From: Emiliania huxleyi CCMP1516
Lineage: Eukaryota
Assembly (NCBI RefSeq): GCF_000372725.1
Contig: NW_005201792.1
Location: 1,057,440-1,121,439 of the forward strand
Direction of reading: 5' to 3'
Length of the DNA stretch: 64,000 nt
The notes under the pieces were generated by a model. That model was not told the origin of the DNA. It did not search any database and saw nothing but the letters and a program-made list of their open reading frames with translations. The translations under genes and the position numbers were made by a program. Of this stretch, positions 5,407 to 54,281 are shown piece after piece; position 1 is the stretch's first letter; every line of letters begins with the position of its first letter.

Positions 5407-6291
5407 ATGTCGCCCAAGCCGGTCCTCCATTATTTTGACATTAACGGCCGGGGCGAACTCAGCAAGGTGCCCTCCGCTCTTGCAGCCATCGCGCCAACGA
5501 GCCGACCCCCTTCCTCCGGCCTCGATGAGCCACGTGTAGCACCAGGCCACCCCGCTCGCGGTTGCGTCGCTGGTAGCACTGATCGCCGCTCGTCCCTTCT
5601 CAGCTTATCGCCGCTGTGTCGCTGGTAGCACTGATCGCCGCCCGTCCCTTCTCAGCTTATCGCCGCTGTCGGCGGCCTCGAACTCGAATGCGTCGAGTAC
5701 CCATTTTCGGCAAATGGAGCCTCTGCCGCCGACAAGTTGAAGGCGGGCCCGGTTCAGTCGGAGCACACCAAGGCGGCTACCGCGATGGGCATGGACGGTT
5801 GTGGTCTGCCAATCTTAGTGCACGGTGACCTCAAGATCTACCAGAGCTTTGCCTGCCAGAACTACCTCGCGTCTATCGGTCCCAAGTATCCAAAGGTCAC
5901 CGCGCAGCAGCAAGCCGTGGACGACATGTTTCAGGGCGCGTTGGAGGACTGCATGGGCCTCGGCGCCGGGGTCATCCTGAGTGGTGGCGACCCCGCGCTG
6001 GTGCCAAAGGTCATGGAGAAGGTTCTCGCTCACCTGAGCAAGTACATCCCGGACAAGGGTTTCGTCCACGGCAAGGATGCGCCCACCACGGCCGACTTGG
6101 CCGTCCTCGTCCTGACACAGGCGCTGATCCCGTTCGGTGCGACGCTGGGCGAGGGCGCTGCCGAGTGCTACGGGAAGTTTCCCAAGGCTGTGGCTCTGGG
6201 CGAGCGGGCCGCCGCTTTCCCTGCGATTGCGACATGGCTCACCAACGAGCACTGCAACCTCAAAAAGCCGCCAAAGGCTGCACGCAAGTGA
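5407..6291 (+). CDS. Glutathione S-transferase (sigma/alpha-like); intron 5467-5655
   Basis: MSPKPVLHYFDINGRGELSK|LIAAVGGLELE...GLPILVHGDLKIYQSFACQNYLA...FVHGKDAPTTADLAV. This gives the GST N-domain (LHYF..GRGE, LP.L..G..I.QS) and the C-domain TxAD motif. Confidence 0.85.
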
Positions 6292-6738: not shown

Positions 6739-8632
6739 ATGCCCACCAACGAGCGCAAGAGCTTCTTCCGTCCCTTTACGCGCTCAAAGACGTCCATCAA
6801 GTCGGCGTCCAACCTGCTGACAACGACCCGACTCGAGTTCCGCGCCGTCTTCCGCGCTGATGGCGTCGCCACTGATCCGTTCAGCACGTACACCGAGCAG
6901 GCGCTCCACGACGCGCTGCAGCTCGCCATACCCGCTGGCACCAGGGGGAGCCTGACACCATCCGTTGACTCCAGGGGCCAGCCGGCAGCACTCGTCCGCG
7001 TAGTTGCAACCGACTCCCGCGCCCTCTACGAGCTCCGGGCGATGGTCGTCAGCGGAGACTTTATGCGCGAGCTCACTCGGCAGCTTCGCGCGAACGTCAA
7101 GGAGGTGCGCCGCTCGCAGCGCGTGGAGTCGATGCGCACCGGCGCGCCCACCAGCCTCCCTGACGACGACCGCGACCTCGACAAGCTCGACGACGACTCT
7201 GCAAACGGCTCCGCTCCCGGCGTCACCGAGATGACCATGATGGATGACGACGACAACATTTGGGAGAGGATCCGTCTGATGCTGCCGTGGGAGGAGAAGT
7301 CGGAGAAAGACCGGCGGAATGAGGTCAAGCGCGAGCTCAACTCTTGCATCCAGCAGCGCACCGAGATGCGTGACAGGCTGGCCGAGATCGAGGCCAAGTG
7401 CACCGAGCTCACCGAGCAGCTGGCGACCATGTCTAAGAGCACCGAGGAGCCCGCCGCCGAGGTGGTGGCGAAACGGGAGGCAATCGAGGCGCCGCCGCCG
7501 CCGCCACCGGCGGCCGCGCTCTCCGAGGACGAGGTCTCCGACTCGTCCGCCAGCAGCGATGCGGGCGACCCCGTCGGCCCCGTCGCGGCCAACCACGTCG
7601 CGCTCGAGGAGCTGACGCCCGAGCAGTTGGAGATGGTCAAGGATCTCTCGGCCGCGTACCTCGCCGCGGGCGGCGAGCTCGACGAGTACGGCGACATCTT
7701 CATCCTCCGCTTCCTCGTCGACCGCGACTGGAAGTACGAGAAGGCCAAGAAGAAGGCCGAGGCGACCGCGGCGTGGCGTGCCAGGAGCGGCGTCAACGGC
7801 TTCCGCAAGCAGATCGCGGGCGGGCTCGCGTACCACGAGATCCCCAACATCAAGGAGCTCTTCACGAGTGTCGCCGTCGCCAACTGCCACTCGCGCACGA
7901 GGTCTGGCGACCTGCTGACCTTCATCGACTACGGCTCGCTCGACGTGACCAAGTTCTTCAAGATGCTCGACAACACGCAGTACTTCGATATCAACAACTT
8001 CATCCTCGAGTACGCCTCCTACCACGCCGACAAGCTGACCAAGGAGACCGGCATCCTCGTCCGGCAGGCCCGCCGCCGCCCTCGCCGCCGCCGCCTTCGC
8101 CGCCGCCGCCCCCCCCCCCGTCGCCCCCTGCGCCAAGCCCGCCTGTACTACCCCGAGCTGCTCGCAGCCCGCCGACAGTACTACCCCGAGCCGCTCGCGC
8201 CCCCCCCCGTCGCCACAGTTCATGGTCATCGACGCGGGTGGCATCGGCCTCGGTCACGTCTCGCTGCGCATGTTCATCCGCTTCAAGCCGATCATGCCGC
8301 TCGCCGACCTGTACTACCCCGAGCTGCTCGGCGGCGCGCGCGTGCTCAACGCGGCGTGGGCGCTGCACCAGGGCTGGAAGCTCGTCAAGCCGCTCCTCTC
8401 CAAGCAGATCCAGGACATGGTCGGTATCCTCGACGCCAAGCACACGCAGGGCGCGCTGCTCAAGGTCGCGGACCCGGAGGCTGTGCCCGACTACCTCGGT
8501 GGCGAGTGCGCCACCATCCCGCGCCCGGCGGTCAACGAGTACCCCAGGGCGGGCATGGACGGCGTGGATGCTGACGCCATCTGCCCGGGCAAGAAGCTGG
8601 GCGCCTACATGCGCCGCACGCTCGCGCCCTGA
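6739..8632 (+). CDS. CRAL-TRIO/Sec14-like lipid-binding protein with N-terminal coiled coil; GC-AG intron 8068-8218
   Basis: GDIFILRFLVDRDWKYEKAKKK...AAWR (CRAL-TRIO N). RQ|FMVIDAGG...DLYYPELLGGARVLNAAW...WKLVKPLLS...AVPDYLGG (CRAL-TRIO core). Confidence 0.85.
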
Positions 8633-19369: not shown

Positions 19370-20385
19370 CTAGCAGCCGAGGGGCGATCGCGGCTCCCGA
19401 GCAGTCTCTCCGAATCTCGCGACTGGTGGTGCGGCCGGCCAGGCGGTGGCTCGCACCGACTTGAGCACCGCAGAGATGCCCGAGGGCGGCATCACCCTGG
19501 TGGGGCCTGCAGCGAGGGGCGGTGTGCGTGAGTTGAGCCGTCCACGCGCATGATCTGGGCAGATCTCGGCAGATCTCGGCTCATCTCGGCGGGTGTCACC
19601 GGCGGCGAGGATGTGCGCCAGGAACTCCTTGAGGATGGCGAGGAAGGCGTCGCGGTGCCTGAGAGGCGGGGCGCACTGGTCAAGGCGGGGAGGGGGGCGG
19701 GGAGGGCGGCGGGGAGGCGGGTCTTTGCGCCGCGACTCGATGTCGTTGTGCGAGCCGCCAGTGATCCAGCCGGGCGGGAGGGGGTGGTGCGCGCGGCAGA
19801 CGGCGTACAGGTCCTGCGCATTCGAAAAGGGGATCGTCTCGTCGCAGTCGCCGTGCACCTGGCAGAGAAAGCAGGTGGAGAAGGGGAGGAGGAGGAGGTG
19901 AGAGGCGAGGGAGGAGGTGAGAGGGCGGCGGCTGCGCACTGCGCCGCGTGGCAGCGGCGGGGCGGGGGTGTGGGAGAGCGGGTGCGGGAGAGGCTCGCCA
20001 GCTGTGTGGGGGACTTGCAGGACGCGAGGCTGCCGAGGTTGTTGAAGAACTGGGCGTCGAGTGCCCAGACCCGCGTCTCCGGGAAGAGGACGCGCGCGCC
20101 AGAGGCGAGGCCTTGGGGGGGGGGGAGGGGTGGCGAGGGGAGGAGGAGGGGTGGCGAGGCCTCGCGCGCATGTCAACGGACACGTCACGGCGTGTCGATG
20201 CCGCGAATGTCGCGGACACGTCGCGGACATGTCGCGGACACGTCGCGGACATGTCAGGGGCGGGCGAGGGGCGGGCGAGCGAGGGGTGGGCGAGCGCACC
20301 GGAGCAGACGACCACGCCGCGGAAGGCGTGCTTGCCGGCGAGGTAGCAAGTGGGGCACGAGCCTGGGGGAGAGGGCGGGGCAGGG

Positions 20386-20472
<87 letters not shown>

Positions 20473-21151
20473 GTGGGCGAGGGAGGCAGGCGGTGGCACG
20501 AGCCAAGAGACTTCCCGAAGACGACGATGTCGCGCTCTGGCTTGAGCCCGAAGCCGTCGACGAGAATCTTCAGCGCCGCGCGCGCGTCCGAGTACAGGTT
20601 CGCCTCGCACGGGCTGCGCACCGCAGCAGGGGAGGGGCCGTCAGCTGCCTGCTGGCTGTCAGCTGCCTGCCGGCTGCCTGAACAACCCATGGGCCGAGGC
20701 GGCGCCGCTGCTGCAGGGCTGCGGTCCCAGAGGGCTGCGGTCCAGAGGGCGGTGCCGGCAGCGCGGGCACGCAGGGGCGTCTCGCGGGGTGCAACAGCTG
20801 AGGGACCCAGGTCCCGGCGCGCTGTGCGGGAGGCGTCTCTTTCGGGCGAAGCCTCTCGGACTCCAAAAGGCACCTGCCCGTCGCGTGCCCGTAGCCGGAG
20901 TACTCGTAGGCGAAGACGTCCACCTGAAGCTGCTGCGACATGTAGGCCCAGTACTGCAGCACCAGGCCCAAGTCCTCCGCGTTGGCGTGCGACACCAGCA
21001 CCGTCAGCGGGAAGCCACGCCGGATGTGGAAGGCAGGGATCCGGTTGCCGCGGTCAGTGTCGAGCCACATGTTGACGTCCTCCTTACGGTAGGTAGGGTT
21101 CGGTGGGCAGAAGGCCATCTGATTAACGTGCTTCGCCGCCATGGCGCCCAT
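19370..21151 (-). CDS. ABHD17: ABHD17-like alpha/beta hydrolase (depalmitoylase-like), multi-exon
   Basis: MAFCPPNPTY, VSHANAEDLG, FAYEYSGYG, EANLYSD, VFGKSLG|SCPT (nucleophile elbow), VHGDCDETIPFSN, GGSHNDIE. Ser-Asp-His triad present. Confidence 0.88.
20383..20471. repeat. Telomere-like (GGGTGA)n array inside ABHD17 intron 20363-20503
   Basis: About 14 tandem GGGTGA units (CCCTCA on the sense strand). Confidence 0.95.
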
Positions 21152-23314: not shown

Positions 23315-25579
23315 TCACGACCCTCCGACCTCGCTGCCGGCCGCCGGCGCGCACCCGTGCTCGTCCGCGTCGTACTCCTTGCGGCCGACGTTGTGCGGCT
23401 TGACGCTCGACAGCCTACAGCAGCCAGCCACCGCGTGAGGCGCCCCACGCCGCGCAGAGACAGGCACTCTGCAGCACGGGAGCCTGTTCGGGTCCGGCTG
23501 GCCGGGCGGCGCGCCCTGGGTGGCGGCGAGGTCGGCGAGACTCGTCACCGGCGGGCGGCGGCGGGGCGCGGTGGAGCATGGCTCGCCTGCCGTGTGCATT
23601 AGCTCACGGTGTTAACACAGCGCACCGCAGCTGCATCGATGCGGGAGTGGGACCGCCTGTCTGCAGGAGTGGTGCCTGTCTGCAGGAGTGGTGCCTGTCT
23701 GTCCGCCCGTGAGTGCAGACCAGCGTGGAGCGCGTGCGCTCTCGAGCGGTGCAGCGCCGGTGCTTGTGGCCGGCTGTGTCTGTCAGCTCGCGCATCTAGA
23801 AGGAGGCGGACAGCAGAAGCCGCCCGTGCGAGGGAGGCAGTGCTCGCACACGAGGTGGAGCTTGTTGCAGTCGATGTTTCCGCAGTTGACGAAGGCCTGC
23901 GGGCGGGGGCGGGGGCGGGCGGATGCGGGTGCGGGCGGGTGCGGGTGCGGTGCGGGTGGGTCGCGGCCGGTGCGGCGGTCGGGTCGGGGCGGCGGCGGGC
24001 TGCGCTGCCTCGGTCGGGGCTCCGCAGTGGACGCACTGTCCGACCACCTCGGACGAGGCGCCCCCGAGCGGCACCTGCGAGGTGTCCAGGACGTGTCGAG
24101 GGGCGTGCACAGGGGGCGTGCACAGCGGCGTGCACAAGCGGCTGCATCTCGGCTGCACCCTGTTCCGGCGATGGAATCTCCCGGCTACACCTCGGCTGGA
24201 CTCGGCTTGTCTCTCGGCTGCACCGTGTTCCGGCGGTCGAAGACGAAGAGCGAGCCCTTCCAGCGGGGCGGCGCCTCCTCCGCCGCCGCGTGGGCGTTGC
24301 CGTAGTGCTGCACGCCGCCCTGCAGCTTGTACACCTTCTCGAAGCCCGCCGCGCGCAGCCGTGCGCCAAAGTACTCGCATCGGATCCCGCCCGTGCAGTA
24401 CATCATCACCTGCTCTTGTTCTCATCACTTGTGAGTCTCACCGTCGGTGTGGCGGTGGTCCCGCGCAGCCCCTCCCGCACCGGCGTCTCGGCGCGCTCCT
24501 CAGGGTCGGAGGGAAGGCCGTACGCCTGGAGGGCGGCGCAGAGGCGGCGCAGGTCAGCCGGAGGGCAAGCGACAGAGGGTCCCGAGTCGGAGAGGCGGCA
24601 GCGAGCTCGAGCAGCGTGCGCCTCCTCGTCCGACTGCGCGAAGGTGTCCGGCGACGGGCGCGCCGCGCCTGCCCGCCGAGGAGGAGGTGCAGCCGAGATG
24701 CAGCCGAGGTGCGGCCGAGGTGCGGCCGAGGTGCGGCCGAGGTGCGGCCGAGGTGCGGCCGAGGTGCGGCCGAGGTGCGGCCGAGGTGCGGCCGAGGTGC
24801 GGCCGAGGTGCGGCCGAGGTGCGGCCGCGCCGTCGAATCGTCCGACGTCCCACTCGTACCCGTTCCGCACGTCCAGCACGATGGGAGCACCGCCGCCTCC
24901 GCCCTCCTCTCCGCCGCCGTCTGCCTTAGCGAGCAGCTCCTCCCACTCGGCCGGGCTGACGTCCCTCCCGCGGTCCTAGTCAGAACCAGTGCTGTCACTC
25001 CCTCTCGTAGAGGGGACGGTGTGCACGGCTGACGTCCCTCCCTCGCTCCTGCAGGGACGCCACTCTGCCCGAGGCGCCGCCGCCGAGCAGCTCGCCGCTC
25101 GGCACGAGGCTGCGGTGCTTCACGCGCAGGCGAGGGAAGGCGAGCTCGTCGCACGGGTCCTCCTTGAAGAGGATGGGCTCGGGCGCGGCGCCCGGCCCGA
25201 GCTGGTCGTGGCAGTACGCGCGGTATTCGGCGCACTGCTCTGCGGCGCCCGAGACCTGCGCGTTGATGCCGTCTTCGCAGAGGTAGACGCGGCCAACCAT
25301 CCCTCGCTTTGTGAGGAAGGCGCGGTGCGACTCAACCGCCTCGTCCGGCTGGGCGATGGGCGAGATGGCGTAAAAGGCGAGCGCGCGGTACGGCAGCGTC
25401 GCGTCCAGCTTTGGGTTGATGGAGAGGACGGGAGCCGGGACGGGCACGGCCGCTCGGATGGCGGCTGCAGCCGTGACGAAGCGGAGACTGGCGCAGCCGG
25501 TGCCAGGCAGCCTTCGCGCGGCGCCAAACTGGCACGACAGCAGCAGAGCTAGCTGTCGCACAGGAGGACGCAGCAACAT
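23315..25579 (-). CDS. trhO: Rhodanese-domain tRNA uridine(34) hydroxylase, TrhO/UPF0176 family, probably organelle-targeted; many introns
   Basis: GRVYLCEDGINAQVSG, AFPRLRVK, VLDVRNGYEWDVGRFDGA, MYCTGGIRCE, VYKLQGGVQHY, WKGSLFVFDRR, C..CG.P, NCGNIDCNKLHLVCEHC...GFCC. Long N-terminal extension. Confidence 0.9.
24688..24826. repeat. 11-bp minisatellite (GCGGCCGAGGT)n inside a TrhO intron
   Basis: About 12 tandem copies. Confidence 0.95.
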
Positions 25580-36176: not shown

Positions 36177-39100
36177 TCAGCAAAACCGCGTTTGTGCCGC
36201 TCCAGCGAGGGCAATCGTGCGGCGCTGCGCAGCGCGCCAGAGCGATCGCCCTCTCGCGAGCTCTGCGCGCGTGCTCTTGCGCCGTGGCCTGCGCTCAAGG
36301 CAGAAGCAAGTGGTCAGCGATCGGCGGTTCAGGAAAGTGGAGCAAGGGCTGTGCTGGGGGCGAAGCGCCACCTTTGAGAGCTTCGCGCCCACCGAGCCCA
36401 GGGGCGCAGCCTCTGCCTCCGCCAGCCTGAGAGAGGACAGGCAGGGCAGGCGAGGGGGTTGGAGGCGGAGCGGGCCGGTGCGCCGCCACCGGGTGCCGCG
36501 CACCGCTGCAAGACGGGAGCCGTGGCGCTCAGCGAGAGCGAGAGCGAGAGCGAGAGCGACGCGGCGGACGCGGGGGACGCCGCCTGCGCGTCCGCCTCGA
36601 GCTGCGCCACGAGCGACGCCGCCTCCTCGCCCGCCACCAGAGGCGACGAGCTTCGCCAGAGGCCGTCGACGAGGAAGAGAGCGTTCTCGCCGCCCTCACA
36701 CGCGCCAACACACGCACCAGCACCGCCCGCCGCGGCGCCGCCCGGCGCGCCTCTCGCGCGGACGGCGGCGGAGAGAGGCGCGAGCGCGGCGGCGCGCATC
36801 GCGGATCGCGTCTCAGCGCGGCAGTGTGCGCCGAGCCAGCCGGCCAGCAGACAGGCGGCCTGGGGCTCTCCGCCGCTGCCCGCCGCCGCGAGCGCTGAGG
36901 CTGCGCCCGGCTGGCCGCCGTGCGAGTAGGAGAGAGCGGCCCGCGCGAGCGCGCCGCCGAGCAGGCCGGGCGGCACCGGGGCGGCGGCCAGCTCGAGGCG
37001 GGCGGAGAAGAGCGCGCGCTGCGCGGGCGAGGTGAGCTCGAAGCACGCCTCGAGCACGCTCACCGCAGGCCCTGCCTGTGCGGCCGCCAGTCTGCCGAGC
37101 GTCGCGCGGAGGAGCTCGGCGGCGAAGCTGCTGGCGGCCTGCTCAGCCTGCTGCGCGGGGCTGGCGGCAGACGGCCGCGGGCGGGCGGCGCAGATCCAGG
37201 CAGACTCCGCTTCCGCGACGGCCCCCTGGGCGCGCGCGTGGCTTCCCCCGCCGACTCGACCCTCCCCACTCCCCTCGCCACCGGCGGGAAGAGGTGCGCG
37301 TGCCCAGCGAGAGGAGGAGGCGGCGGCGGCGGCAGCGTCCTCCGACCCAAAGGCGGGAGCGGCGTAGCGCGAAAAGTGGCGCGAGCAGCCGTACAGCGCA
37401 CCGCGCCGCCGCGGCGGCTGTGTCGGCGGTGGCGACGCGTTTGCGTCGATGCCGCCACAGACCGGGGAGCAAGCGGGGCAGCAGAGCGAGAGGAGGGCGA
37501 GGCGGGTCGCTGGCGGCGGCCCGTGCGGGTGCGGCGGCAGCGAGAGCAGCAGGGAGAGGACGAACGTGACGCGGCTCGGGTGGTGCTGGTACAGCGGCCG
37601 GAAAGTGATTAGTTAATTAGTAGTTAATTAGTAGTTAATTAGTAGTTGCCTGGTACAGCGGCCGGTAAGTGCGCAGCAAATCAGTCGCCAGCTGCAGCGC
37701 CTCACCGCCGCCTGCGTCACCTCCGCCGCCGCCCCTTGCGCCGATCAGCGCCGCCTCGATCGCCATGTCGACCGCCGGAAGCAGCCTCCTCGCCGCGCTC
37801 GAGTAGACACGCGGCCCCGCCCCCCGGCCCGGCAGCAGCGACGCGGCGGCCTGCGCGGCGTCGTCGTCGAGCGGCCTGATTAATTATCCGAAGTAAGTGT
37901 GCTGACAAGTCCTCAGTCGTGAGAGAGACATCGCGTCGAGCTGCCAGAGCGCGGCGGGTGCGTCGGCGTGGCGGAGCGGCTCCGGCGCGAGGGCTTGCGC
38001 GAGCCGCCCCATCGCGGCGCGCTGCTCCGTCGGCGGCGGCGGCGAGGGCGCCGGAAGCCTCGCAAAGGGAGCGACGAGACGCGCCACCGCCGGGGCCTCG
38101 AGCAGCAGCCGGCGCAAGGCTGCGGCGGCGGAACCCGCGCCGTCGGCCTCCTCGAGGCGGGCGGCGAGGATCGCGACAACGTGCTCCAGTCTCACCAGCT
38201 CAAGCGCCGGCCCAAGCGCGCACACCTCTGCGAGAGCATCGGCCCGGCCCGCCGCCCCGCCGGCGCCGCCGCGCAGCACAAAGCTCACGGCGACGTGGGC
38301 CGCCGCCGGGAGCTGTGCCGGCGGGAAGCCAGCGCCTCCGCCCAGCTGCCGCGCGCTCGCAACGGCAGCGGGGAGGAGGGTCGCACCCGGCGACTCTGCA
38401 AGCTCGGCGATCATCGCGCAGACCGCCGCCGCGTGCAGCAGCAGAGACGGCGGAGGAGCGGCGCCGCCGTCTGGGTCTGGCGGAGGCGGAGGCGGAGGGG
38501 CGGTCGCTCGGCCAAAGAGAAAGTCGCGGGCAAGCCGCAGCGCATCGGTGCCGCGGTCGGGCGCGGCAGCGTCCGCGGCGGCGGCGGCCACATCGACGAC
38601 CATCCGCAGCGCGCTGGTGACGGTGCGGCCGAGCTCTGCGGCCGGCTCCGCCTCGCTGCTGCCGGGCGGGTGGAGGGCGCGCAAGCGGCGCTCGGCGGCG
38701 AGGAGGAGGAGGGCGAGCGGCTCGAGCGCGACGGCGGCGGCGACGTTCGCCGCGCGCGCCGCCGGCGGCGCGTTCGAGTCCTGCGCCGCCTTTGCTGCGG
38801 GGATGATGGGGCGGAGGAGCGCGGCGAGGCACTGGGGCGACGCTGCTGCGGCGGCGTGCGTGGAGAGGAGATCTTCGGCGGCGCCGTGCGCGGCGGGGCA
38901 GCGGCTGCGGGAGAGGGAGGCCGCCGCCAGCTTGAGGAGAAGCTGGCTGTCTCGCTCGGTGCCTAATTAGTAGTTAATTAGTAGTTAATTAGTAGTTAAT
39001 TAGTAGTTAATTAGAAGCTGACTGTCTCGCTCGATGCCGCTGCGGCAGAGTAGCCAGCGGAGGCGGTACGCGAGCAAGTCGAACAGGGCCGCCTACAGTC

Positions 39101-42100
39101 GGCCGACGGCGGCGGCTCGCAGGACGGGAGACGTACCGAGCCGCCTCGCGGGGGAGGCTCGCACCAGCGCGTGCGACGTCACCGACCCCGCGGCGGCCGC
39201 GGCGGCGGCAGAGCCCGAGGAGGCTGCGTCGGGCGGGCACAAGTCGTACACGCAAGACTTGCCGTGCGGCGAGCCCGAGCCGAGGGTCTGCGGCAGCGTG
39301 AGGACGAGCCGCGCGTACGACTCGAGCAGCGAGACGAGGGGCGAGCCGCCCTCGCCCGCAGAGAGCGGCGGGGCGGTGCTGTCTGGAGCGGCGGGCTTGA
39401 GCTCCTCCTTGATGGCCGCGGCGAGCGACGCCTCGAGGCGGCGGCGGCAGTAGACGTTGAGGTGCAAGAGCAGCGACAGAGGCAGTGGCCGCCCGCCCGC
39501 GCGCAGGCCGTGCAGCAGCAGGTCGACGAGCTGCTGCGTGGTGATGTGCGAGGCGAGGCACGCGCGGCGGACCATCGACGCGGACGCGACCAGCGCCTCC
39601 GCAGCCTCGACTGCTCGGCTCGACCCGGGCGGGCGGCGGGAAGAGCCTACTCTCTCACACAATGGCGGCGTCTGGAGGAGAAGGAGGGGGGAGGAGCCGG
39701 CGGCCGCCGCCGTCCGAGAGCCGTTTGCGGGGCTGTTCTCCATGCCGCTGCTGCCTCCCCCTCCCCGGGCGCGGCTGGCAGCTGAGCTCGACGCGGCGGC
39801 CTCGAAGAGCGGCGCGACGGCCTTGTGTGCGTCCTGGGTGCGGCGGGCGAGGAACGGGGTGCGGCGAGGGGAGGGGGCGGTCTCGCTGGAGCTACGGGTG
39901 CGTCAGCGAGGCCATCGTGGGGGCAAGGGGTCGCGTGCATCAGCCTGGGGGAGGTGCGAGAAGGTGCGCGAACACGTGTGCGGCCGGGAGCTGGCGAGGG
40001 AGGGGGCACGGTGCAAGCTAGGCGCGCAAGCCTTCAGCGCCCTGTCGCCTGACACCTCGCAAGCTGTCCACGCCGCCGCGTGCGCCTCGATCGCCGCGGC
40101 GGGAGCCGGGAAGCGAGTGAGCAGGCAGAGGAGCGCGGCGCCGCGTAGGGTGCTCTCAGACGCGGCGGACGGCCCTCCGACGGCGGGCAGCGGTGCCCAC
40201 AGGCCGGCGGAGCTGCTGGCTGCGCCGTCGCAGCCGAGACGCAAGGCAGCGGCGGGCAACAGCCGGGCCCCGCGCTCCGCGCCCCCAGTCATCTGCTTGT
40301 ACAACACCGCGGCGTGCGCCGCGACGAGCAGCAGACCGGGCCCCGCGTCCGCAGGCGGCGGCCACAGCCTCCACTCCCCGCCCTCGCCGCCCTCCCCGCC
40401 GACGCCCGCTCCGCCGGCAAGCGGCGCGAGGTTGGCAAGCAGCGCAGCCTCGCGCCGGCGCGCCTCGTGGAGCAGCAAGTGGGAGAGCGCCCCCTCGTGC
40501 ACCCCGCGGTGCGAGTACAGCAAGTCCAGCGACGCGGGCAGCACCGCCGCCCGGCTCGAGCCAAGCTCCGCCTCTGCCGCCGCAGCGTCGGCGGAAGCGC
40601 CTGCGGCGGCGCGCCCGAGCCCGCCGCCGCGAGCGGCTGGCTCCCGCTCTCTGCTGCTGCTCGACGCCCTGCCGTTGGCGACGCCGCAAGCACCGCTGGC
40701 CGCGACACTCGCGGTGCCAGCACCCGAGCCGTTGGCCGGGTCGGCGCTGGCCGGATGGGCGCTGGCTCCCGCCCCCTTGGAGGCCCTCTTGGAGGTCTCC
40801 TGGGTTTGCTTGGAGGTTTGCTTGGAGGTCTCCTTAGAGCGCTTCCGCTTCACGCCGAGACGCGGAGACGCCTCCGAGGCGGCGGCGGAGGGGGAGGGAG
40901 CGGCGGAGGGAGCGAAAGCGGCAGCTGCGACTACGCTCGCCGCCGCCACCCGCGCCGCGGTGTCGGCGGCGGAGGCAGCGTGCTGCGCTGTCGCCAGATG
41001 CGCTAGCTGCGCCGCGCACACCGCCGCCTCCCGCGCCTCCTCCTCGAGGGCTGCAGCGGCCGCCGTCGCCGGCGCACGCGATGCGGGGAGGGCGGGCGGA
41101 GGCTGCAGCCGCGGCGCGCGCCAGTGGGCGATCTCGGTGGCAGCCAGCTGCACCGCCGTCGCCCAGCCAGGCCCGTTCTGAGCCCTCACCGGCGGGAGGA
41201 GGAGCGCCTGGGAGGGAGGGGGGCAAGGGGCGGGGTGAGGCAGCTGGGAGGGAGGGGGGGCAAGGGGCGGGGTGAGGCAGCTGGGAGGGAGGGGGGCAAG
41301 GGGCGGGGTGAGGCAGCTGGGAGGGAGGGGGGGCAAGGGGAGGGAGGGGGGGCAAGGGGAGGGGTGAGGCAGCGTGGCGGGCAGCCGCAGCCCGCGACGC
41401 GGCCCGTGCATGTGCGCGAGTGTCGCGAAGACCCGTGTCTCGGAGAGAGCTTCCCGTGACTGAGGCGTCCAGTGGCTCTCTCTCGCTTCCCTCCCCGACC
41501 CATCTGGACAGCGCCATCTAGACAGCAGCAGCCTCTGCCGCAGGGAGAGGAGGACTCTCCCGCGCGGCGCAGCCACGGGCGGCGGCGCGTGGGAGGAGGA
41601 GCGCCATCCAGTGCAGCGCCCCCCGGCCGTCTCCGCCGCCCCAGCCCCAGCCCGCCGACGGCCGTGCCGCGGCCCCGACCAGCGTGTCGCTCAGCTGCCG
41701 GAGCGAGCCCTCGAGGCCAGCGATTGCACCGCCCGCCTCCCACTCCTCCGCGCTGTCGCCTCCGCCGCTGTGCAGCTGCGGCCGCTGCTGCAGCCTCGCC
41801 ACCACGCCGGCCCAGCGCAGATGCGGAGACGCGTCGCCCGTCGCGGAGGTGCCTCCTCCGCCTCCTCCGCCTCCGGCCGCCGCCACTGTCTCCTCTGCCG
41901 CCGCCTCTGCTGCCGCCGCCGCGAGAGCGGCTGCGAGGCTGCAGCGCACCGTGTAGTGCGAGCAGATCGTGGCGTGGCGAAGCCGAGCGTTCGCCTCTTG
42001 GCCAGGCCCACCAGCCGCACCCGCGATCCTCCGCTCGCACAGCCGCAGGGCGTCGCACAGCAGGCGGGCGCTCTCCCGCCTCAGCTGCTGTAAGCATGCG

Positions 42101-42393
42101 GAGGAGCGACCCGGCTGCAGCTGCTCCAGCTGGGTCTCGGGCGACTGCAGCACGAGCAGGACCACGCGCAGCGCGCCAAGCAGCCACGCGGGCGGCTCTG
42201 CCAGCGGGTCAGCCGTGACGGCCGCCGCTTCCGCACGCAACATGCAGAGCGCGTCATGCAGCGATTGCAGCGGCGTGCCGGCACTCGGTTGCGCCGCTTC
42301 AGAAGGGAGCACTTCGCGCGCCGCGCGACCCAAGGCACCTGGCCACGCGCGGAGCACACCGAAGGCGAGAGAGAGCGCCTCTCGCGCCTCCAT
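36177..42393 (-). CDS. MED23: Mediator complex subunit 23 (divergent, multi-exon; 3' end approximate)
   Basis: Motifs occur in MED23 order after splicing: PLPLSLLLHLNVYCRRRL (cf. LPMNLLDSLTVH), SLLESYARLVL (cf. ALVETYSRLL), DLLAYRL, PRVYSSAARRLLPAVDMAI (cf. PIYFGNVCLRFLPVFDIVI), LLRTYRPLYQHHPSRVTFV (cf. LYKFHDRPVTY / YHPLRFTFV). Comparisons are from memory. Confidence 0.72.
37607..37647. repeat. (TTAATTAGTAG)n array in MED23 intron 37586-37649
   Basis: About 3.5 copies. Confidence 0.9.
38963..39013. repeat. (TAATTAGTAGT)n array in MED23 intron 38963-39037
   Basis: About 4.5 copies of the same 11-mer as at 37.6 kb. Confidence 0.9.
41208..41372. repeat. Intronic minisatellite of about 37 bp in MED23
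   Basis: CTGGGAGGGAGGGGGGCAAGGGGCGGGGTGAGGCAG repeated about four times. Confidence 0.85.
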
Positions 42394-42509
42394 TGCCTTG
42401 TCTCCGAGTGCCCCGTACTGAGCGAAGGCAACCGCCGCGAGGGCGAGGCTGGAAGGCACGGGACTGGCGCGCACTGGCTTAGCTTGGGATGAAAGAAAGA
42501 GAAGGTTTC

Positions 42510-45385: not shown

Positions 45386-46360
45386 CTAGAGGAGGTGCGC
45401 AAAGTCGCCCTCGAACTCCTCGCGGTCGCGCTTGCGTGCCGCGCCGTTGGCCCCGTAGGAGCCGAGCCGGAGTTGGGCCCGCTCTAGCCAGCCGTACAGG
45501 AGGTGGCGGCAGCGCTTGTGGGCGAGCGCGGCGTCGATCGCGTCGTACCAGAGCTGCAGGGCGCGCATGCTCTCGGGCGGGAGGCGGACCACTACCGTCG
45601 TGACGGGAAAGGCGTGGAGGAACACGGCGGTTAGGGGCACCGTGACGCGGTCGAGGGAGGAGCAGCCGCGAAAAGCGTTCTGTCCGATGGAGATGAGGGC
45701 GGGGGAGAAGACGATGCGCTTGAGGGATCGGCAAGAGAGAAAGGCGTCGCTGCCGATGTGTCTCACGCCGGCGGGAAGGGCGATGTGAGTGAGGGAGGTG
45801 CAGCCCTCGAAGGCTCCCGGTCCGATCGTGCAAAGGGTGGCTGGAAGGGCCACAAACTGAAGGGAGCTGCAGGCGTAGAACGCCGCGTCGTTGAGGACGC
45901 CGAAACCTTCTCGCCGGGGCCGAAACCTTCTCGCCACGCACTGGAAGGCCCGGCCGAGTTCGCATTCGTGCGAGAAGGTGACTGGAAAGGGCCACCCGCA
46001 CTGGAACGCCCGGTCACCTTCGCCTTCGTGCGAGAAGGTGACGGAGGTGAGCGACCTGCACTGGAAGAACGCCCGGTCACCAACGGCCTGGATGGAGCGC
46101 GGGCAGACGACGGAAGTGAGGGAGTCGCAGTCGGCGAACGCGGCCGCCGGTATCGATGGCATGCCCTGTGGCAGGATTGCGCGACCGGAAATGACAGGGA
46201 CGAGTTGGATGCCTCTGCCGGGGATGGCGGGCCGGTCGCTTGCCACGGAGATCACTTCCCAGCTGCTGCCCGCGATTAACCGAGGCTGCGCGTACGTGTA
46301 GAGAGCTCCAGAGTGCTGCGCAGCAAAATATGCTTGCAGGAATCGAATGTCGTCACTCAT
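45386..46360 (-). CDS. BspA/LRR_5-type leucine-rich repeat protein, intronless
   Basis: Repeats such as LPATLCTIGPGAFEGCTSLTHIALPAGVRHIGSDAFLSCRSLKRI and ISIGQNAFRGCSSLDRVTVP match the TpLRR consensus. ATG at 46360. Confidence 0.85.
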   Translation of the reverse strand: MSDDIRFLQAYFAAQHSGALYTYAQPRLIAGSSWEVISVASDRPAIPGRGIQLVPVISGRAILPQGMPSIPAAAFADCDSLTSVVCPRSIQAVGDRAFFQCRSLTSVTFSHEGEGDRAFQCGWPFPVTFSHECELGRAFQCVARRFRPRREGFGVLNDAAFYACSSLQFVALPATLCTIGPGAFEGCTSLTHIALPAGVRHIGSDAFLSCRSLKRIVFSPALISIGQNAFRGCSSLDRVTVPLTAVFLHAFPVTTVVVRLPPESMRALQLWYDAIDAALAHKRCRHLLYGWLERAQLRLGSYGANGAARKRDREEFEGDFAHLL

Positions 46361-49669: not shown

Positions 49670-52600
49670 ATGCCGGCATACTGTGAGCTTCCCGAGAATC
49701 CATTCGAGCCGGCGCTGCGCCTCGTCGCCACGCACCCGCTCTCCTCGTTCTGCGAGACCAAGCAGCCTCCCAAGCAGCCACCACCGAGCGCAAAGCCGGC
49801 ACGCAGCGGCAAAGGCTCGGCAAAGGGCAAAGCGAAGAAGGAGGCGCAGCCGGCGGCGGTGCCAGCGCCCGCGGCGAAGGACGAGAGCAGCCCTCCCGCC
49901 GCCTCCCCCGGCCACGCGGAAAGCGGTCGCAGCTCGCCGCCGTGGCGCCGGCCGCAAGATAGTCCCGTCGACCGGCGTGAGGCAGAAAAGATGAAGGCGT
50001 ACATGAGACAGATCGAGGCGGCGGAGGCGGCGGAGCGGGAGCGCGCAAGGCGGCGGGCGCAACGCGAGGCGTCCGCCGCGGGCGACCCCTGTGCGTGCGG
50101 CCGCGCGCACGGCCGCAAGCTCTCGATGCGTCTCACATCGGGTGGGCGAGAGCATGAAGGCAGTCTCCTCCCCCATGGGGGACCTGTCGGTGACACGTCC
50201 GTGCCGCGCCCACAGGTGGACCGAAGTGTGAGGTCTGCTCTGGCGCGCGGCCGCTCCCTCCGCCGCCCGCGGTGCGCGACGCCCCCCTCTTCACGCCTTC
50301 GGAGGAGGAGTTTGAGGACCCTCTGGCCTACATCGCAAAGGCGCGCAGAGTAGCGCCTTGGCGCAGAGGTCAGCGACTCTTCTCGAGGAGCCGCTCGCCT
50401 ACATCGCAAAGAGACGTAGACGCGTCTTGCACGAGCGCAGCCGCCCTAGCCCTGACCCTGACCCTGACCCTGACCCTGACCCTGACCCTGACCCTGACCC
50501 TGACCCTGACCCTGACCCTGACCCTGACCCTGACCCTGACCCTGACCCCTGACCCCTGACCCCTGACCCCTGACCCCTGATCCCTGGCCCAAGGTCCAGC
50601 GCTCCTTTTACGAGTACGGTGCCGCGCACCGCGTAGATGCAGAAGCGGCAGCTCTGCGGGGCCCTCTCTGCAACCCCCCCCCCCCCCACACACACCCACT
50701 CCCTCCTCCCCCGCTGGCCCAGCACTCCGCTGACCACCCTGCGGCGTTGCACCTGCGGCGTTGCACCTTGCGGCGTTGTCTCTTCACGCACACCCGGAAA
50801 GGCGCTTTGCCGCGCCGCGGCTTGCACAGCACCCTCCCCCCCCTTCCCCGCCTCTGCAGGCATCTGCCGCATCCGCCCTCCGCCCAGCTGGTCCCCCCCT
50901 CACACCTTCCACCTCCGCCACGGACCCGACGCCGCAGAGCCGACAGCGCCCCGCCCAAAGCCGGAGCCACCCTCCCCTCCCCAACCGCCACCCGAGCCAC
51001 CCTCCTCCGACCACCCGCCCCACCCGCCCCACCCGCCCCACCCGCCCCACCCGCGGCCCGGCGCGCGATGGAGCGGCGCCGCCGGCAGCGCCGCCGCCAA
51101 CGGCGCCGCCGCCGCTGGCGCTGCCGCCGCTGGCGCTGCCGCCGCTGGCGCCGCCGCCGCCAGTCCCGTGGCTGGGACGGCTCCCCCGCCGGGTGCCCCG
51201 CCGCTGCAGGAGCAGAGCTCGCACGGCCGCGTGCTAACCCAACCCTAACCCTAACCCTGACCCTAACCCTTACCCTTACCCTTACCCTAACCGCTGCAGG
51301 AGCAGAGCTCGTATGGCCGCGTGCTGCCGCCGAGCGACGTCTCGTACAGCGCCATTGGCGAGGAGAGACGCAGCTCTCCGCCTGGCTGCAGAGAATGGGT
51401 CAGTTAGGGATTACACGCTAGTCGTAACGAAGTAGGAGACGCAGTTCTCCGCCCGGCTGCAGAGGATCGGCACGCGCGCCGAGGCTAGCGGCCACGCCGC
51501 CCCACGTCTCTTAATTAATGAATACACTAATGTCACTATTGATGAACAGGAGAGCGGCCACGCCGCCCCCTTCATCTGCACTTTCGTCTCCGCGTACGCC
51601 TCTGTCGCCCTCGGCGCGCTCAAGAAGATGGACGCCGAGCTTCGGTCCGAGGCCTTCCCGGGTCAGCCGGCGGAGGAGCCGCCGGCGGCGGAGGCGGCGG
51701 AGCGCTTCTTCTGGGAGCGGCTAGCTTCGGAGAGCGAGGCGCGTGTCTGGCGTCGACAGCGGCGCGCCGAGCCTGCTCGCCGTCAGCCCGAGATTTGCCG
51801 AGATCAGGCGCGCGTGCTGTACTGCTCGGACGTCGAGGGGACGGCCTTCCCGACCGGCGCACCTCGCACCGCCGCACCGGCCCTCCTCTCCCCACCACAG
51901 GCCCGCCCCTGTGCACTCTCCCCCGCACCCCCCCCCCCCCCCCGCACTCTCCCCGCCGCTTCTCACCGCGCCAGACCGCGCCAGGATGGGCGCCCGCCCC
52001 CTTGCTAGGAAGTGTCGTGGGAAGTGTCGAGGAAGTGTCTAGGATGTGTCTAGCCGGAGGAAGCGCCCCTTTGCGGTCAGGCGCGCGCGACGGCCCAACG
52101 GCGAGGGACGCCCGCTGGTCGCTGCAGCAGATCGCCAGCCACGACGCGTCGCTGCTGCGCTTCGTGCGGTACGACATCCCCGGCGTGAACACGCCGATGC
52201 TCTACTTCGGGATGCTCTTCGCGATGTTTTGCTGGCACGTCGAGGACAGCCACATGTACTCGATCTCGTACCTGCACGAGGGCGCGCCACACAGACTGTG
52301 GCACGGCTTCATTGCTACTCCACTCATTAGTTCGTGTGAACTAACTAGGGGCGCCAAAGACGTGGTGCGGCGTCTCGCCGCGCCAGGCCTAATTAATTAA
52401 CACGTACCTAATTAGTCCTGGCCTAATTAATCAACCAGGTACGGCGTCTCGCCGCGCCAGGCCGCCGCCTTCGAGTCCGTCTTCGCCGACGCGGCTTTCC
52501 CGCGCGACGTTGCCGCCGACCCGCTGCTGCTGCAGAAGAAGGCGTCCATGATCCCGCCGCACATGCTCACCAGCCGCGGGGTCGCCGTCTGCCGCGCCGT

Positions 52601-54281
52601 GCAGCAGCCGGGTGAGTTCGTCGTCACGCTGCCGCAGGCCCAGACACTTCCTAGACACTTCCTAGACACTTCCTAGACACTTCCGAGACACTTCCGAGAC
52701 ACTGCCGAGACACTGCCGAGACACAGCGCGAGTTGTCGTCACGTTGCCGCCACGCCACGGAACGCACAGCGCAGTTTCACGTTGAGCAGCGGCGAGTGGC
52801 TCCGCCCCAGGCCTACGTACTGACACGAGACATTCTCTTGTCTGACCGCCTACCACGCTGGCACGAGATGGCATTCTTCACACGCTCGCCTGGCCGCAGG
52901 CCTACCACGCCGGCTTCTCGCTCGGCTTCAACGCCGCCGAGGCGGTCAACTTCATGCTCGCCGATTGGCTGCCGTACGCACTCTCCGCCTCGGAGGCGTA
53001 CCGCACGCTGGGCAAGGAGAGAGCGCACCCTCGCCCCGCGCACCCTCCCCTCCCCTCCCCTACCCGCCCTCCTCTCCTACCCGCCCTCCTCTCCCTCGGC
53101 GACCCTCTGCGACCTTCGGCGAACCTCGGCGAACCCTCGGCGACCCTCAGGAGCCGGCGATCGACTTGGAGCACCTCCTCCTCGACGCCGCGGAAGCTCG
53201 CCACTCCGCGGAGGCGGCGGTGCGGCTCAAGGCAGCGACACTTCCGAGAGACTTCCGAGACACTACCTAGACAGGCGGCGCTGCGGCTCAGGGCAGCGAG
53301 CGCCGGGAGGACCCGAGATGGGCCGAGATGGGTTCGAGACTTGCGCCCTCTGCGCGGAGGGAGGGCTGCGCGCAGGAGGCTCGAGGCTCAAGGCGGCGTG
53401 GCGCTGGTTCCGTGAGTCCCCTCCCCCCCCCTTCCCTCGCCGCCAGGTGCTCGTCGACGAAGAGATTCGCGCGCGCGCTTCCGTGCGCTCGAGAGGCGTG
53501 CCCGAGGTGCAGCCGCACGAGCGCGTCTCGCCCCGCCGGTCGACGCACCGTCGTCCCGGCGCCAGTCGTTGCCTGTCGTGCCGGTAGGTTCGGATGCACG
53601 AGTCCGACCGCGCCGTCAACGTCGGGCGCGGGCCGGCTTGCCTCCGGTGCGGCCACACCTGCCACTTCTCCTTCGTCCAGATCGGGACGGACCGCTCGCG
53701 CGGCGGCGAGAAGAAGGGGCGCGGCGGCCGCCAGCTCGCCTGCCTCCGCCACTTCGAGGAGCTGCCCGAGGGGCGGCCACGCCTATCTTCTCGATTTCGG
53801 CCCTTCACTGGTGAGTTCTGGTTCATGACTTAGGAGCTGCCCGCCGAGGGGCGTCACCTCTTTGTGCGGCACGAGGACGAGGTGCTGCGCGGCATCGTCG
53901 CGCGCTCCGCCGACGCCAAGCCGGCGAGCAGGCCCGACCGCGCGTAGATGCTCCTAGACGTGTTCCTAGACCTCTCCCTAGACCTCTCCCTAGACCTCTC
54001 CCTAGACCTCTCTCCAGACACGCCCCAGATGCCAGGTCCACCGCTCTCTCAGATGCCGCGCCTGGCTCCGTCCCCTCTTGACGCGTGTTGCGCCACTTGC
54101 GTCCTCGCCGCCTCACCCGCCCCCCCCCCCCTCCTCCCCTCCACCCCTCCCCTCGACGCGCAGGCCGATGCTCGACCCGCCCGCAAAGCCGGGGCCGTTG
54201 CCGCAGGCGATGCAGCGCGCCATCGCCGAGCTTGACGCGCAGCACAAGCTCAAGCGGCAGAGGCGCTCCAAGCCTAGCTGA
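49670..54281 (+). CDS. JmjN/JmjC histone lysine demethylase (KDM5/JARID-like) with C5HC2-like Zn finger; many introns
   Basis: JmjN: APLFTPSEEEFEDPLAYIAK|VQRSFYEY|GICRIRPP. JmjC: IPGVNTPMLYFGMLFAMFCWHVEDSHMYSISYLHEG|APKTW|YGV...VQQPGEFVVTLPQ|AYHAGFSLGFNAAEAVNF (Fe ligands H-x-E...H). Zn finger: CLRCGHTCHFS...ACLRH. Confidence 0.9.
50446..50585. repeat. Telomere-like (CCCTGA)n array in a JmjC-gene intron
   Basis: About 21 CCCTGA/CCCCTGA units. Confidence 0.95.
51236..51290. repeat. Telomeric (CCCTAA/CCCTGA/CCCTTA)n tract flanked by 35-bp direct repeats
   Basis: Tract lies between 51201-51235 and 51291-51325 (CCGCTGCAGGAGCAGAGCTCG.A.GGCCGCGTGCT). Confidence 0.95.

Follow-up and report, generated by a model that had tools for sequence, protein, structure and literature searches.

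Introns that open with a copy of the following exon in a JmjC gene of Emiliania huxleyi: a probable origin by repair of staggered breaks

We analysed a window of 64,000 nucleotides from Emiliania huxleyi CCMP1516 (contig NW_005201792.1, positions 1,057,440 to 1,121,439 of the forward strand; all coordinates below are counted within this window). It contains a gene for a JmjN/JmjC (KDM5/JARID1-like) histone demethylase, and an earlier note, made from the sequence alone, had remarked that the start of several introns of this gene closely repeats that of the following exon. We call these echo introns and refer to each by its lowest coordinate. Once 16 introns are removed from 49670-54281, a single open frame of 793 residues in 17 exons remains. 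The exons match Pfam JmjN and JmjC (three of the five exons scanned), the orthologue cluster includes a Chrysochromulina tobinii protein named lysine-specific demethylase 5d-like, and a fragment from Isochrysis galbana is 91% identical across half of one exon. All introns have G(T/C/A)-AG ends and all lie at G^G sites, the caret marking the junction. The GC content is about 66%, and GC and GA donors are present; among 241 curated junctions of E. huxleyi, GC donors make up 56% and GA donors 4% (PMC4028052).

Six of the 16 introns open with a 20-37-nt near-copy of the following exon, 79-96% identical. In the test for echoes the intron start was anchored and aligned to the downstream coding sequence, with further G^G sites from the coding sequence as controls. 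For each of the six, none of the 178-181 control sites scores as high. All pairs listed in the earlier note lie where it placed them. In the pooled control, a score of 10 is reached in none of 2865 trials and the maximum is 9.5. Intron 52282 scores exactly 9.5, its own control maximum being 6. Its echo had been described as 8 nt long; it is present, but extends over 26-29 nt and continues beyond the position of the following intron, 52365. The remaining ten introns fail to beat all controls, with weak cases at 51739 (1/175) and 53507 (9/181).

The interiors of these introns are foreign to the gene. Five of them, of 66, 67, 73, 74 and 75 nt, have the lengths and the AT-rich filler claimed earlier; the sixth has 90 nt. 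The GC content of the filler is 0.30-0.55, compared with 0.60-0.74 in the other ten introns and 0.73 in the coding sequence (P 0.004 for filler composition against the other introns, with 52282 grouped with the latter). A simple tandem duplication of a proto-splice site does not account for such introns, as 36-65 nt of each is filler. Of the suggested birth by a duplicated AG^G, the duplication is supported. However, AG^G is seen at only 11 of the 16 introns, and in several echo introns the A of the acceptor comes from the filler: in 52282, in 52365 and in 38963, an insertion in another gene considered below, the G alone falls within the repeat. Intron 51210 also ends with a 9-nt copy of the previous exon, so that repeats flank both sides of the junction, as a single staggered break predicts. 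Its filler is a CCCTAA-type telomere array that touches both repeat copies and stays in register over 2 nt at either joint. In 52282, a glycine codon of the relatives L002, L007, L012 and L013 is kept in the intron copy and changed in the exon copy.

Splicing was assessed on contigs of four runs from three studies, which cover 51295-52630 and which we presume to derive from RNA, although none of them is recorded as such. In all four runs, contigs skip exactly 73 nt at 51363 and 66 nt at 51484; they also bridge 52282 and 52365, keeping the micro-exon that separates these two introns. Thus the four echo introns within this interval are all spliced in transcript-like contigs; the joints coincide with the predicted G(A/C/T)-AG ends and with the junctions proposed earlier. 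One contig of run X1 spans 52282 and 52365 unspliced, with one letter different. Metagenome contig L001 also carries both, differing from the window at 4 of 557 nt, one of them inside the introns; since a wild allele has both, these two introns are not an artefact of the assembly. Nine near-identical open reading frames (ORFs) were found, seven of which read into both introns. P0021 is without 52365 and P0026 without 52282; they may be alleles, partly spliced RNA or products of a collapsed assembly. The birth of these introns had been called recent or ongoing. This was not borne out: the copies differ by 4-21%, and seven of the nine near-identical wild sequences have both introns tested. The divergence may, on the other hand, include errors made at birth.

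Similar insertions occur elsewhere in the window. Direct repeats 50-150 nt apart were scanned for, and 37 of 228 pairs were kept after masking of arrays and low complexity. Four further intron-like insertions in two other genes were found, 38963, 37586 and 24976 by the scan and 37876 by eye. Three of them lie in a long gene on the minus strand, which has an 851-codon frame with all three removed and 595 codons at best otherwise. This frame is read from stop codons alone: a search for homologues found none, which is weak evidence, and the exon compared with Pfam gave no match. It appears as a long, alanine-rich, intron-poor gene at 36400-42400, the three echo-type insertions being the only introns noticed. 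Removal of 24976 restores the frame of a gene with Pfam UPF0176_N in the upstream exon; the exon after it has no match to Pfam or solved structures. An acceptor-swap control (AG replaced by nine other dinucleotides) was uninformative, since for any repeat there is some anchor that picks it up, and was not used.

In total, nine of the ten insertions are of the 5' (echo) type and nine of the ten have lengths of 64-75 nt. In an all-against-all comparison of the ten fillers, 44 of the 45 pairs score at most 10.5 in either orientation. The exception is 38963 and 37586, which share the identical 11-mer ACTACTAATTA and score 38 against at most 15 for shuffles. The statement that the interiors are not one family is therefore correct for most fillers, which are unrelated, but two share an 11-mer and one is a telomere repeat. 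All 14 TAATTA hexamers of the window lie inside five echo insertions, although the ten insertions together make up 1.1% of it; this concentration is partly a matter of composition, as only four comparably AT-rich 50-mers exist elsewhere. Seven of the nine 5'-type introns diverge from the exon copy near the donor (six by a substitution at +2 to +4, one by a 2-nt insertion; P 0.002-0.02), and in all nine a branch-point-like motif, defined by a loose pattern with no control, lies 5-13 nt before the end.

The same kind of scar is also found around repeat arrays. Six of the 49 short-period arrays of the window have 19-31-nt direct repeats adjoining both ends, several of which span exon and intron, and nine of the 49 score at least 11 for flanking repeats, compared with 3.5% in the control. 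Duplications straddle existing splice sites at 53212, 52614, 59374, 11461 and 24147. Any copy in which exon letters are joined to intron letters came from an unspliced template, and as the scars cross old splice sites, the process is general. The echo introns are likely the exonic survivors of this general duplication process.

Table 1. Features of the window, in order of subject and position (echo: matching positions of the repeat)
Feature	Coordinates	Strand	Description	Evidence
JmjN/JmjC histone demethylase gene	49670..54281	+	KDM5/JARID1-like; 17 exons, 16 introns, 793 residues	Single frame, Pfam, orthologue cluster
Echo intron	51210..51299	+	GA-AG, 90 nt, echo 24/26	Predicted splicing; in-frame stop if retained
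Echo intron	51363..51435	+	GA-AG, 73 nt, echo 31/37, one TTAGGG in filler	Joint in 4/4 runs
Echo intron	51484..51549	+	GC-AG, 66 nt, echo 18/20, filler GC 0.30	Joint in 4/4 runs
Echo intron	52282..52348	+	GC-AG, 67 nt, echo 23/29, crosses site of next intron	Joint in contigs of the runs
Echo intron	52365..52438	+	GT-AG, 74 nt, echo 24/25, TAATTA-rich filler, inner direct repeat	Joint in contigs; position shared with other lineages
Echo intron	53759..53833	+	GA-AG, 75 nt, echo 17/20	Predicted splicing
Micro-exon	52349..52364	+	16 nt, flanked by two echo introns	Letters between the sides of the joint, rows for 3/4 runs
Intron with weak echo	51739..51807	+	Echo 7/8, GC-rich interior	Joint in 2/4 runs; position common to L014/L015
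Intron, possible old echo	53507..53587	+	GT-AG, 81 nt; absent from the list of the earlier note	Removes in-frame stop; control 9/181, not significant
Duplication across existing 5' splice site (53232)	53212..53299	+	27 nt, 11-mer repeat filler between copies	Repeat scan
Exon-end copy inside intron 52638	52614..52750	+	11-mer array between copy and exon	Array scan
Predicted echo intron	38963..39037	-	GC-AG, 75 nt, 25-nt echo, filler (ACTACTAATTA) x4.6	Frame test; predicted splicing
Predicted echo intron	37876..37944	-	GC-AG, 69 nt, short echo, TAATTA near end	Donor possibly 3 nt off; predicted splicing
Predicted mirror-type intron	37586..37649	-	GC-AG, 64 nt, ends with 22-nt copy of previous exon, ACTACTAATTA filler x3.5	Splicing inferred
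Predicted echo intron	24976..25048	-	GA-AG, 73 nt, 22-nt echo, UPF0176-domain gene	Splicing inferred

Several other repeats of the window were noted. An 11-mer array at 52005-52053 has contig depths of 34,000-298,000 in the four runs and probably belongs to a very abundant repeat family, which also fills 52642-52724 and 53237-53273 in the opposite orientation. An intron at 8140-8330 holds two copies of a 20-nt stretch from about 90 nt inside the next exon; here local copying reaches beyond adjacent sequence. At 5575-5670, in a gene that we take to be glutathione-S-transferase-like, a tandem duplication of about 52 nt crosses a 3' splice site with no filler. A GGGTGA array at 20337-20504 lies between diverged direct repeats of about 27 nt and is possibly an older telomere-variant scar, and overlapping 46-60-nt repeats in mixed order form a mosaic duplication at 45937-46080. 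In the demethylase itself, one codon of the JmjC core (52251-52252) differs in two runs and in L001; it encodes histidine in the window and asparagine or glutamine in relatives. No JmjC relatives were found in viral contigs.

Intron positions were compared with 20 relative loci (L004 is of the same species as L003 and L005). The tree was obtained by a quick search and midpoint-rooted, with L016 excluded for coverage and P0007 removed, and several of its deep forks are unsettled. In L002, L004, L012 and L013 the region reads through as single frames with no introns. L015/L014 are intron-rich and group in the quick tree with the intron-free L002/P0004. Four of the five echo sites covered by L015/L014 have no intron, and one is occupied. 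The alignment of orthologues proposed earlier thus gives a divided answer, most of the echo sites being empty in this relative and that of 52365 being shared with other lineages. Four of the eight delimited introns of L015/L014 open with 5-13 nt of the next exon and have telomere-like fillers.

The introns of L014/L015 consist largely of telomere-like arrays; in some a G-strand tract gives way to a C-strand tract, as though the two ends of a break had been extended and then joined, and one contains its own 5' junction as an inverted copy of 12 nt. In L016 (590-2830), the introns contain many diverged tandem copies of exon end with intron start and of acceptor with exon start.

What is directly observed comprises the direct repeats, the foreign filler, the precise removal of four introns in transcript-like contigs, and the occurrence of this scar at old splice sites as well. 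We consider it probable that the echo introns are spliceosomal introns born by repair of staggered breaks with duplication and filler. Two nicks 20-35 nt apart within an exon would produce a staggered break; both overhangs would be kept and filled in, giving a duplication of 20-35 nt, and 36-65 nt of filler would be added at the ends, between the copies, before joining. The filler could have a different source in each case: telomerase-type synthesis, copying from a nearby repeat, or untemplated addition. An exonic insertion would then survive selection only if the spliceosome removed exactly one copy and the filler. With permissive GC, GA and GT donors, almost any G^G of the first copy could be used as the 5' site, and AT-rich filler could provide branch-point-like motifs and part or all of the acceptor AG. 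Such donors and such filler would explain why nine of ten insertions are of the echo type, and also the clustering of lengths at 64-75 nt.

Several points weigh against this origin. Neither a break nor an enzyme was observed. The intron-free orthologues may have lost their introns wholesale, and among the sequences compared there is no secure intron-free allele of the same species. For seven of the ten fillers, the rest of the window yields no match that exceeds those of shuffled sequence. The window and L015/L014, with 7 and 5 introns in well-aligned blocks, share three intron positions (residues 424, 512 and 579), where 0.3-0.44 are expected (P 0.001-0.003). Residue 512 is the site of 52365, the least diverged echo, and the ORF of the distant homologue P0049 breaks at the same place. 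The site of 52365 is thus probably old, and birth there needs either loss and regain or a hot spot. Parallel gain is estimated at some 5-20% of shared intron sites (PMC3488318), which counts against a hot spot.

One possibility is loss and regain. The intron that L016, P0011 and an Isochrysis galbana ORF have after residue 495 is missing from the lineage of the window; its site lies 48 nt from that at residue 512. The echo of 52282, more diverged than that of 52365, crosses the latter site unbroken, 8 of 10 nt beyond it matching (P about 0.002 before allowing for gap choice). The introns at 495 and 512 may have been lost together, 52365 being a later regain. P0011, sister to the protein of the window (support 93), reads straight through the 512 site and keeps the two flanking introns; this is weak evidence, as partly spliced RNA is the more likely cause. 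The facts behind such a history also fit copying from cDNA, which is the chief rival.

According to that rival, the introns are old and were rewritten by aborted intron loss: a broken end of the gene copied spliced cDNA over the junction, was released after 20-35 nt and was rejoined with filler. The shared site of 52365 (L014 and probably P0049), the echo of 52282 following junction-free sequence over that site, and the loss of the neighbouring intron at 495 are what it would lead one to expect, as is P0026, which retains the upstream intron, is without 52282 and has different letters after the donor of 52365. We nevertheless find rewriting unlikely. The fillers are AT-rich and not relics of GC-rich introns such as this genome has, and in 38963 the repeat filler reaches the acceptor; in the intron-rich L015/L014, no intron occupies four of the five echo sites that can be tested; 51210 is repeated on both sides; and the duplications containing exon together with intron require an unspliced template. 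Even the crossing echo is equally explained by a stretch of DNA that was free of introns at the time, followed by regain (compare the weak case of P0011).

The remaining explanations invoke mobile elements or error. Certain LINEs terminate in short tandem repeats and give rise to long duplications, and a non-LTR retrotransposon or a telomerase-like reverse transcriptase might have inserted only its tail, target-primed units of repeats with a 20-35-nt target duplication. The identical 11-mer at 38963 and 37586, the arrays abutted by direct repeats and the recurrence of 11-mer families across the window, one with very high contig depth, are consistent with this. But the two fillers share their orientation and are separated by 1.3 kb, so that one may be copied from the other, and most fillers are mutually unrelated. 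In those parts of the window that were read, the body of an element was not noticed, no profile search for one having been made, and the sole match of the 11-mer in viral contigs is to one unrelated, AT-rich contig. We regard this explanation as quite unlikely.

A classical introner, that is, a family of non-autonomous DNA transposons whose target duplication supplies a splice site, is very improbable. The narrow lengths would suit it, introners are reported from a Chrysochromulina genome, and both kinds of intron co-opt a splice site from a duplicated target and leave the mRNA unchanged (PMC9860276). However, introners form sequence families with duplications of 3-9 bp and often inverted ends (PMC9860276), whereas the duplications here are of variable length (20-35 nt, the repeats measuring 20-37 nt) and the ten fillers of the window include no end-to-end similar copies; inverted ends were not systematically searched for. 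Within the window the introner is largely refuted, and the view of the earlier note, duplication with filler rather than an introner family, is upheld, the repeats being far above chance and the filler foreign. Least credible of all is chance similarity in GC-rich DNA or an artefact of assembly. The genome is indeed GC-rich and filled with repeats, and the wild ORF without 52365 is what a collapsed assembly could give. On the other hand, no control reaches a score of 10, and independent contigs carry the same insertions with a single-nucleotide polymorphism (SNP); spliced joints fall at G(A/C/T)-AG ends. For the four introns with contig joints, chance and artefact are refuted by the controls, the SNP-bearing contigs and the spliced joints.

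The closest known system is that of Daphnia pulex, where introns are gained through repair of staggered double-strand breaks, with 33 intron-exon repeats of 4-12 bp (PMC4202315). In both cases a direct repeat is common to the intron and one adjacent exon, and the insert is AT-rich and has inner repeats (PMC4202315). In the window, likewise, the repeats exceed chance, the echo introns within 51295-52630 are precisely spliced, and the AT-rich foreign filler forms no element family, one pair of 45 sharing an 11-mer. However, the repeats of Daphnia are shorter, nearly all its splice sites are canonical and its gains are known as presence/absence polymorphisms (PMC4202315), whereas here the repeats are of 20-37 nt, GA and GC donors are used, six of the 16 introns of one gene are affected and there is no secure presence/absence case. 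Parallel gains at one site are common in Daphnia (43/90; PMC4202315). On balance, the echo introns seem to resemble the gains by break repair in Daphnia, from which their longer repeats and permissive GC/GA donors set them apart.

Parts of the proposed process have parallels elsewhere. In the horse, interstitial telomeric repeats are found at breaks, in register with the break ends and sometimes with a target duplication (3/66 loci; PMC7215372). This resembles the telomere repeats of 51210 and the head-to-head G- and C-strand tracts of L015, but duplication is rare in the horse and the making of introns is not described in the available text (PMC7215372); here only one of ten fillers, that of 51210, is plainly telomeric and in register. 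In mammalian cells, tandem duplications arise at breaks with 3' overhangs via fill-in by CST and Pol alpha-primase, one established way for a staggered break to yield a small tandem duplication; the available text mentions neither filler nor introns, and this is an analogy only (PMC8355091). Across taxa, direct repeats near intron borders include the arrangement of the echo introns, a repeat close to the intron's 5' end matched by one in the 3' exon, in 18.2% of cases (PMC11782384). Those repeats average 11.4 bp and were judged against an equal-base null, the longest (25-30 bp) lie in plastid group II/III introns, and no haptophyte is named in the portion available (PMC11782384). Calcidiscus leptoporus has abundant interstitial telomere tracts, with no link to intron origin drawn in the accessible sections (PMC13518057), and the accessible sections of PMC2784329, 10.1101/2024.05.26.595999 and PMC11347835 do not treat intron scars.

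In the literature on introns, repeats and elements, as far as its texts were available, we found no description of echo introns in haptophytes; the Emiliania genome paper and its supplements lay outside that search and may bear on novelty. That paper, in Nature in 2013, reportedly describes intron repeats of 10-11 bp.

A wider and distinctly more doubtful proposal is that haptophytes possess a transposon-free intron factory. In it, telomerase or a related reverse transcriptase would write short repeat units at staggered breaks; the units would carry branch-point and AG motifs (CCCTAAC, ACTAAT..TAG), and with GC/GA donors many exonic hits would become introns. The 11-nt and telomere-like arrays filling haptophyte introns would stem from the same process, different lineages would be struck again and again at the same proto-splice sites, and each genome would owe introns in the thousands to it.

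How spliceosomal introns arise without transposons is a long-standing question, with few well-marked cases. The window of 64 kb contains ten insertions with long readable scars, four of them seen spliced, and a related pattern occurs in a second haptophyte lineage. Were this density to apply to the whole genome, the process would offer an origin for the repeat-filled introns that hamper gene prediction in these algae, and a cultured alga for which genomes and RNA are public would provide datable events by the thousand, allowing direct tests of birth by break repair, of hot spots against ancestry, and of donor permissiveness against birth rate.

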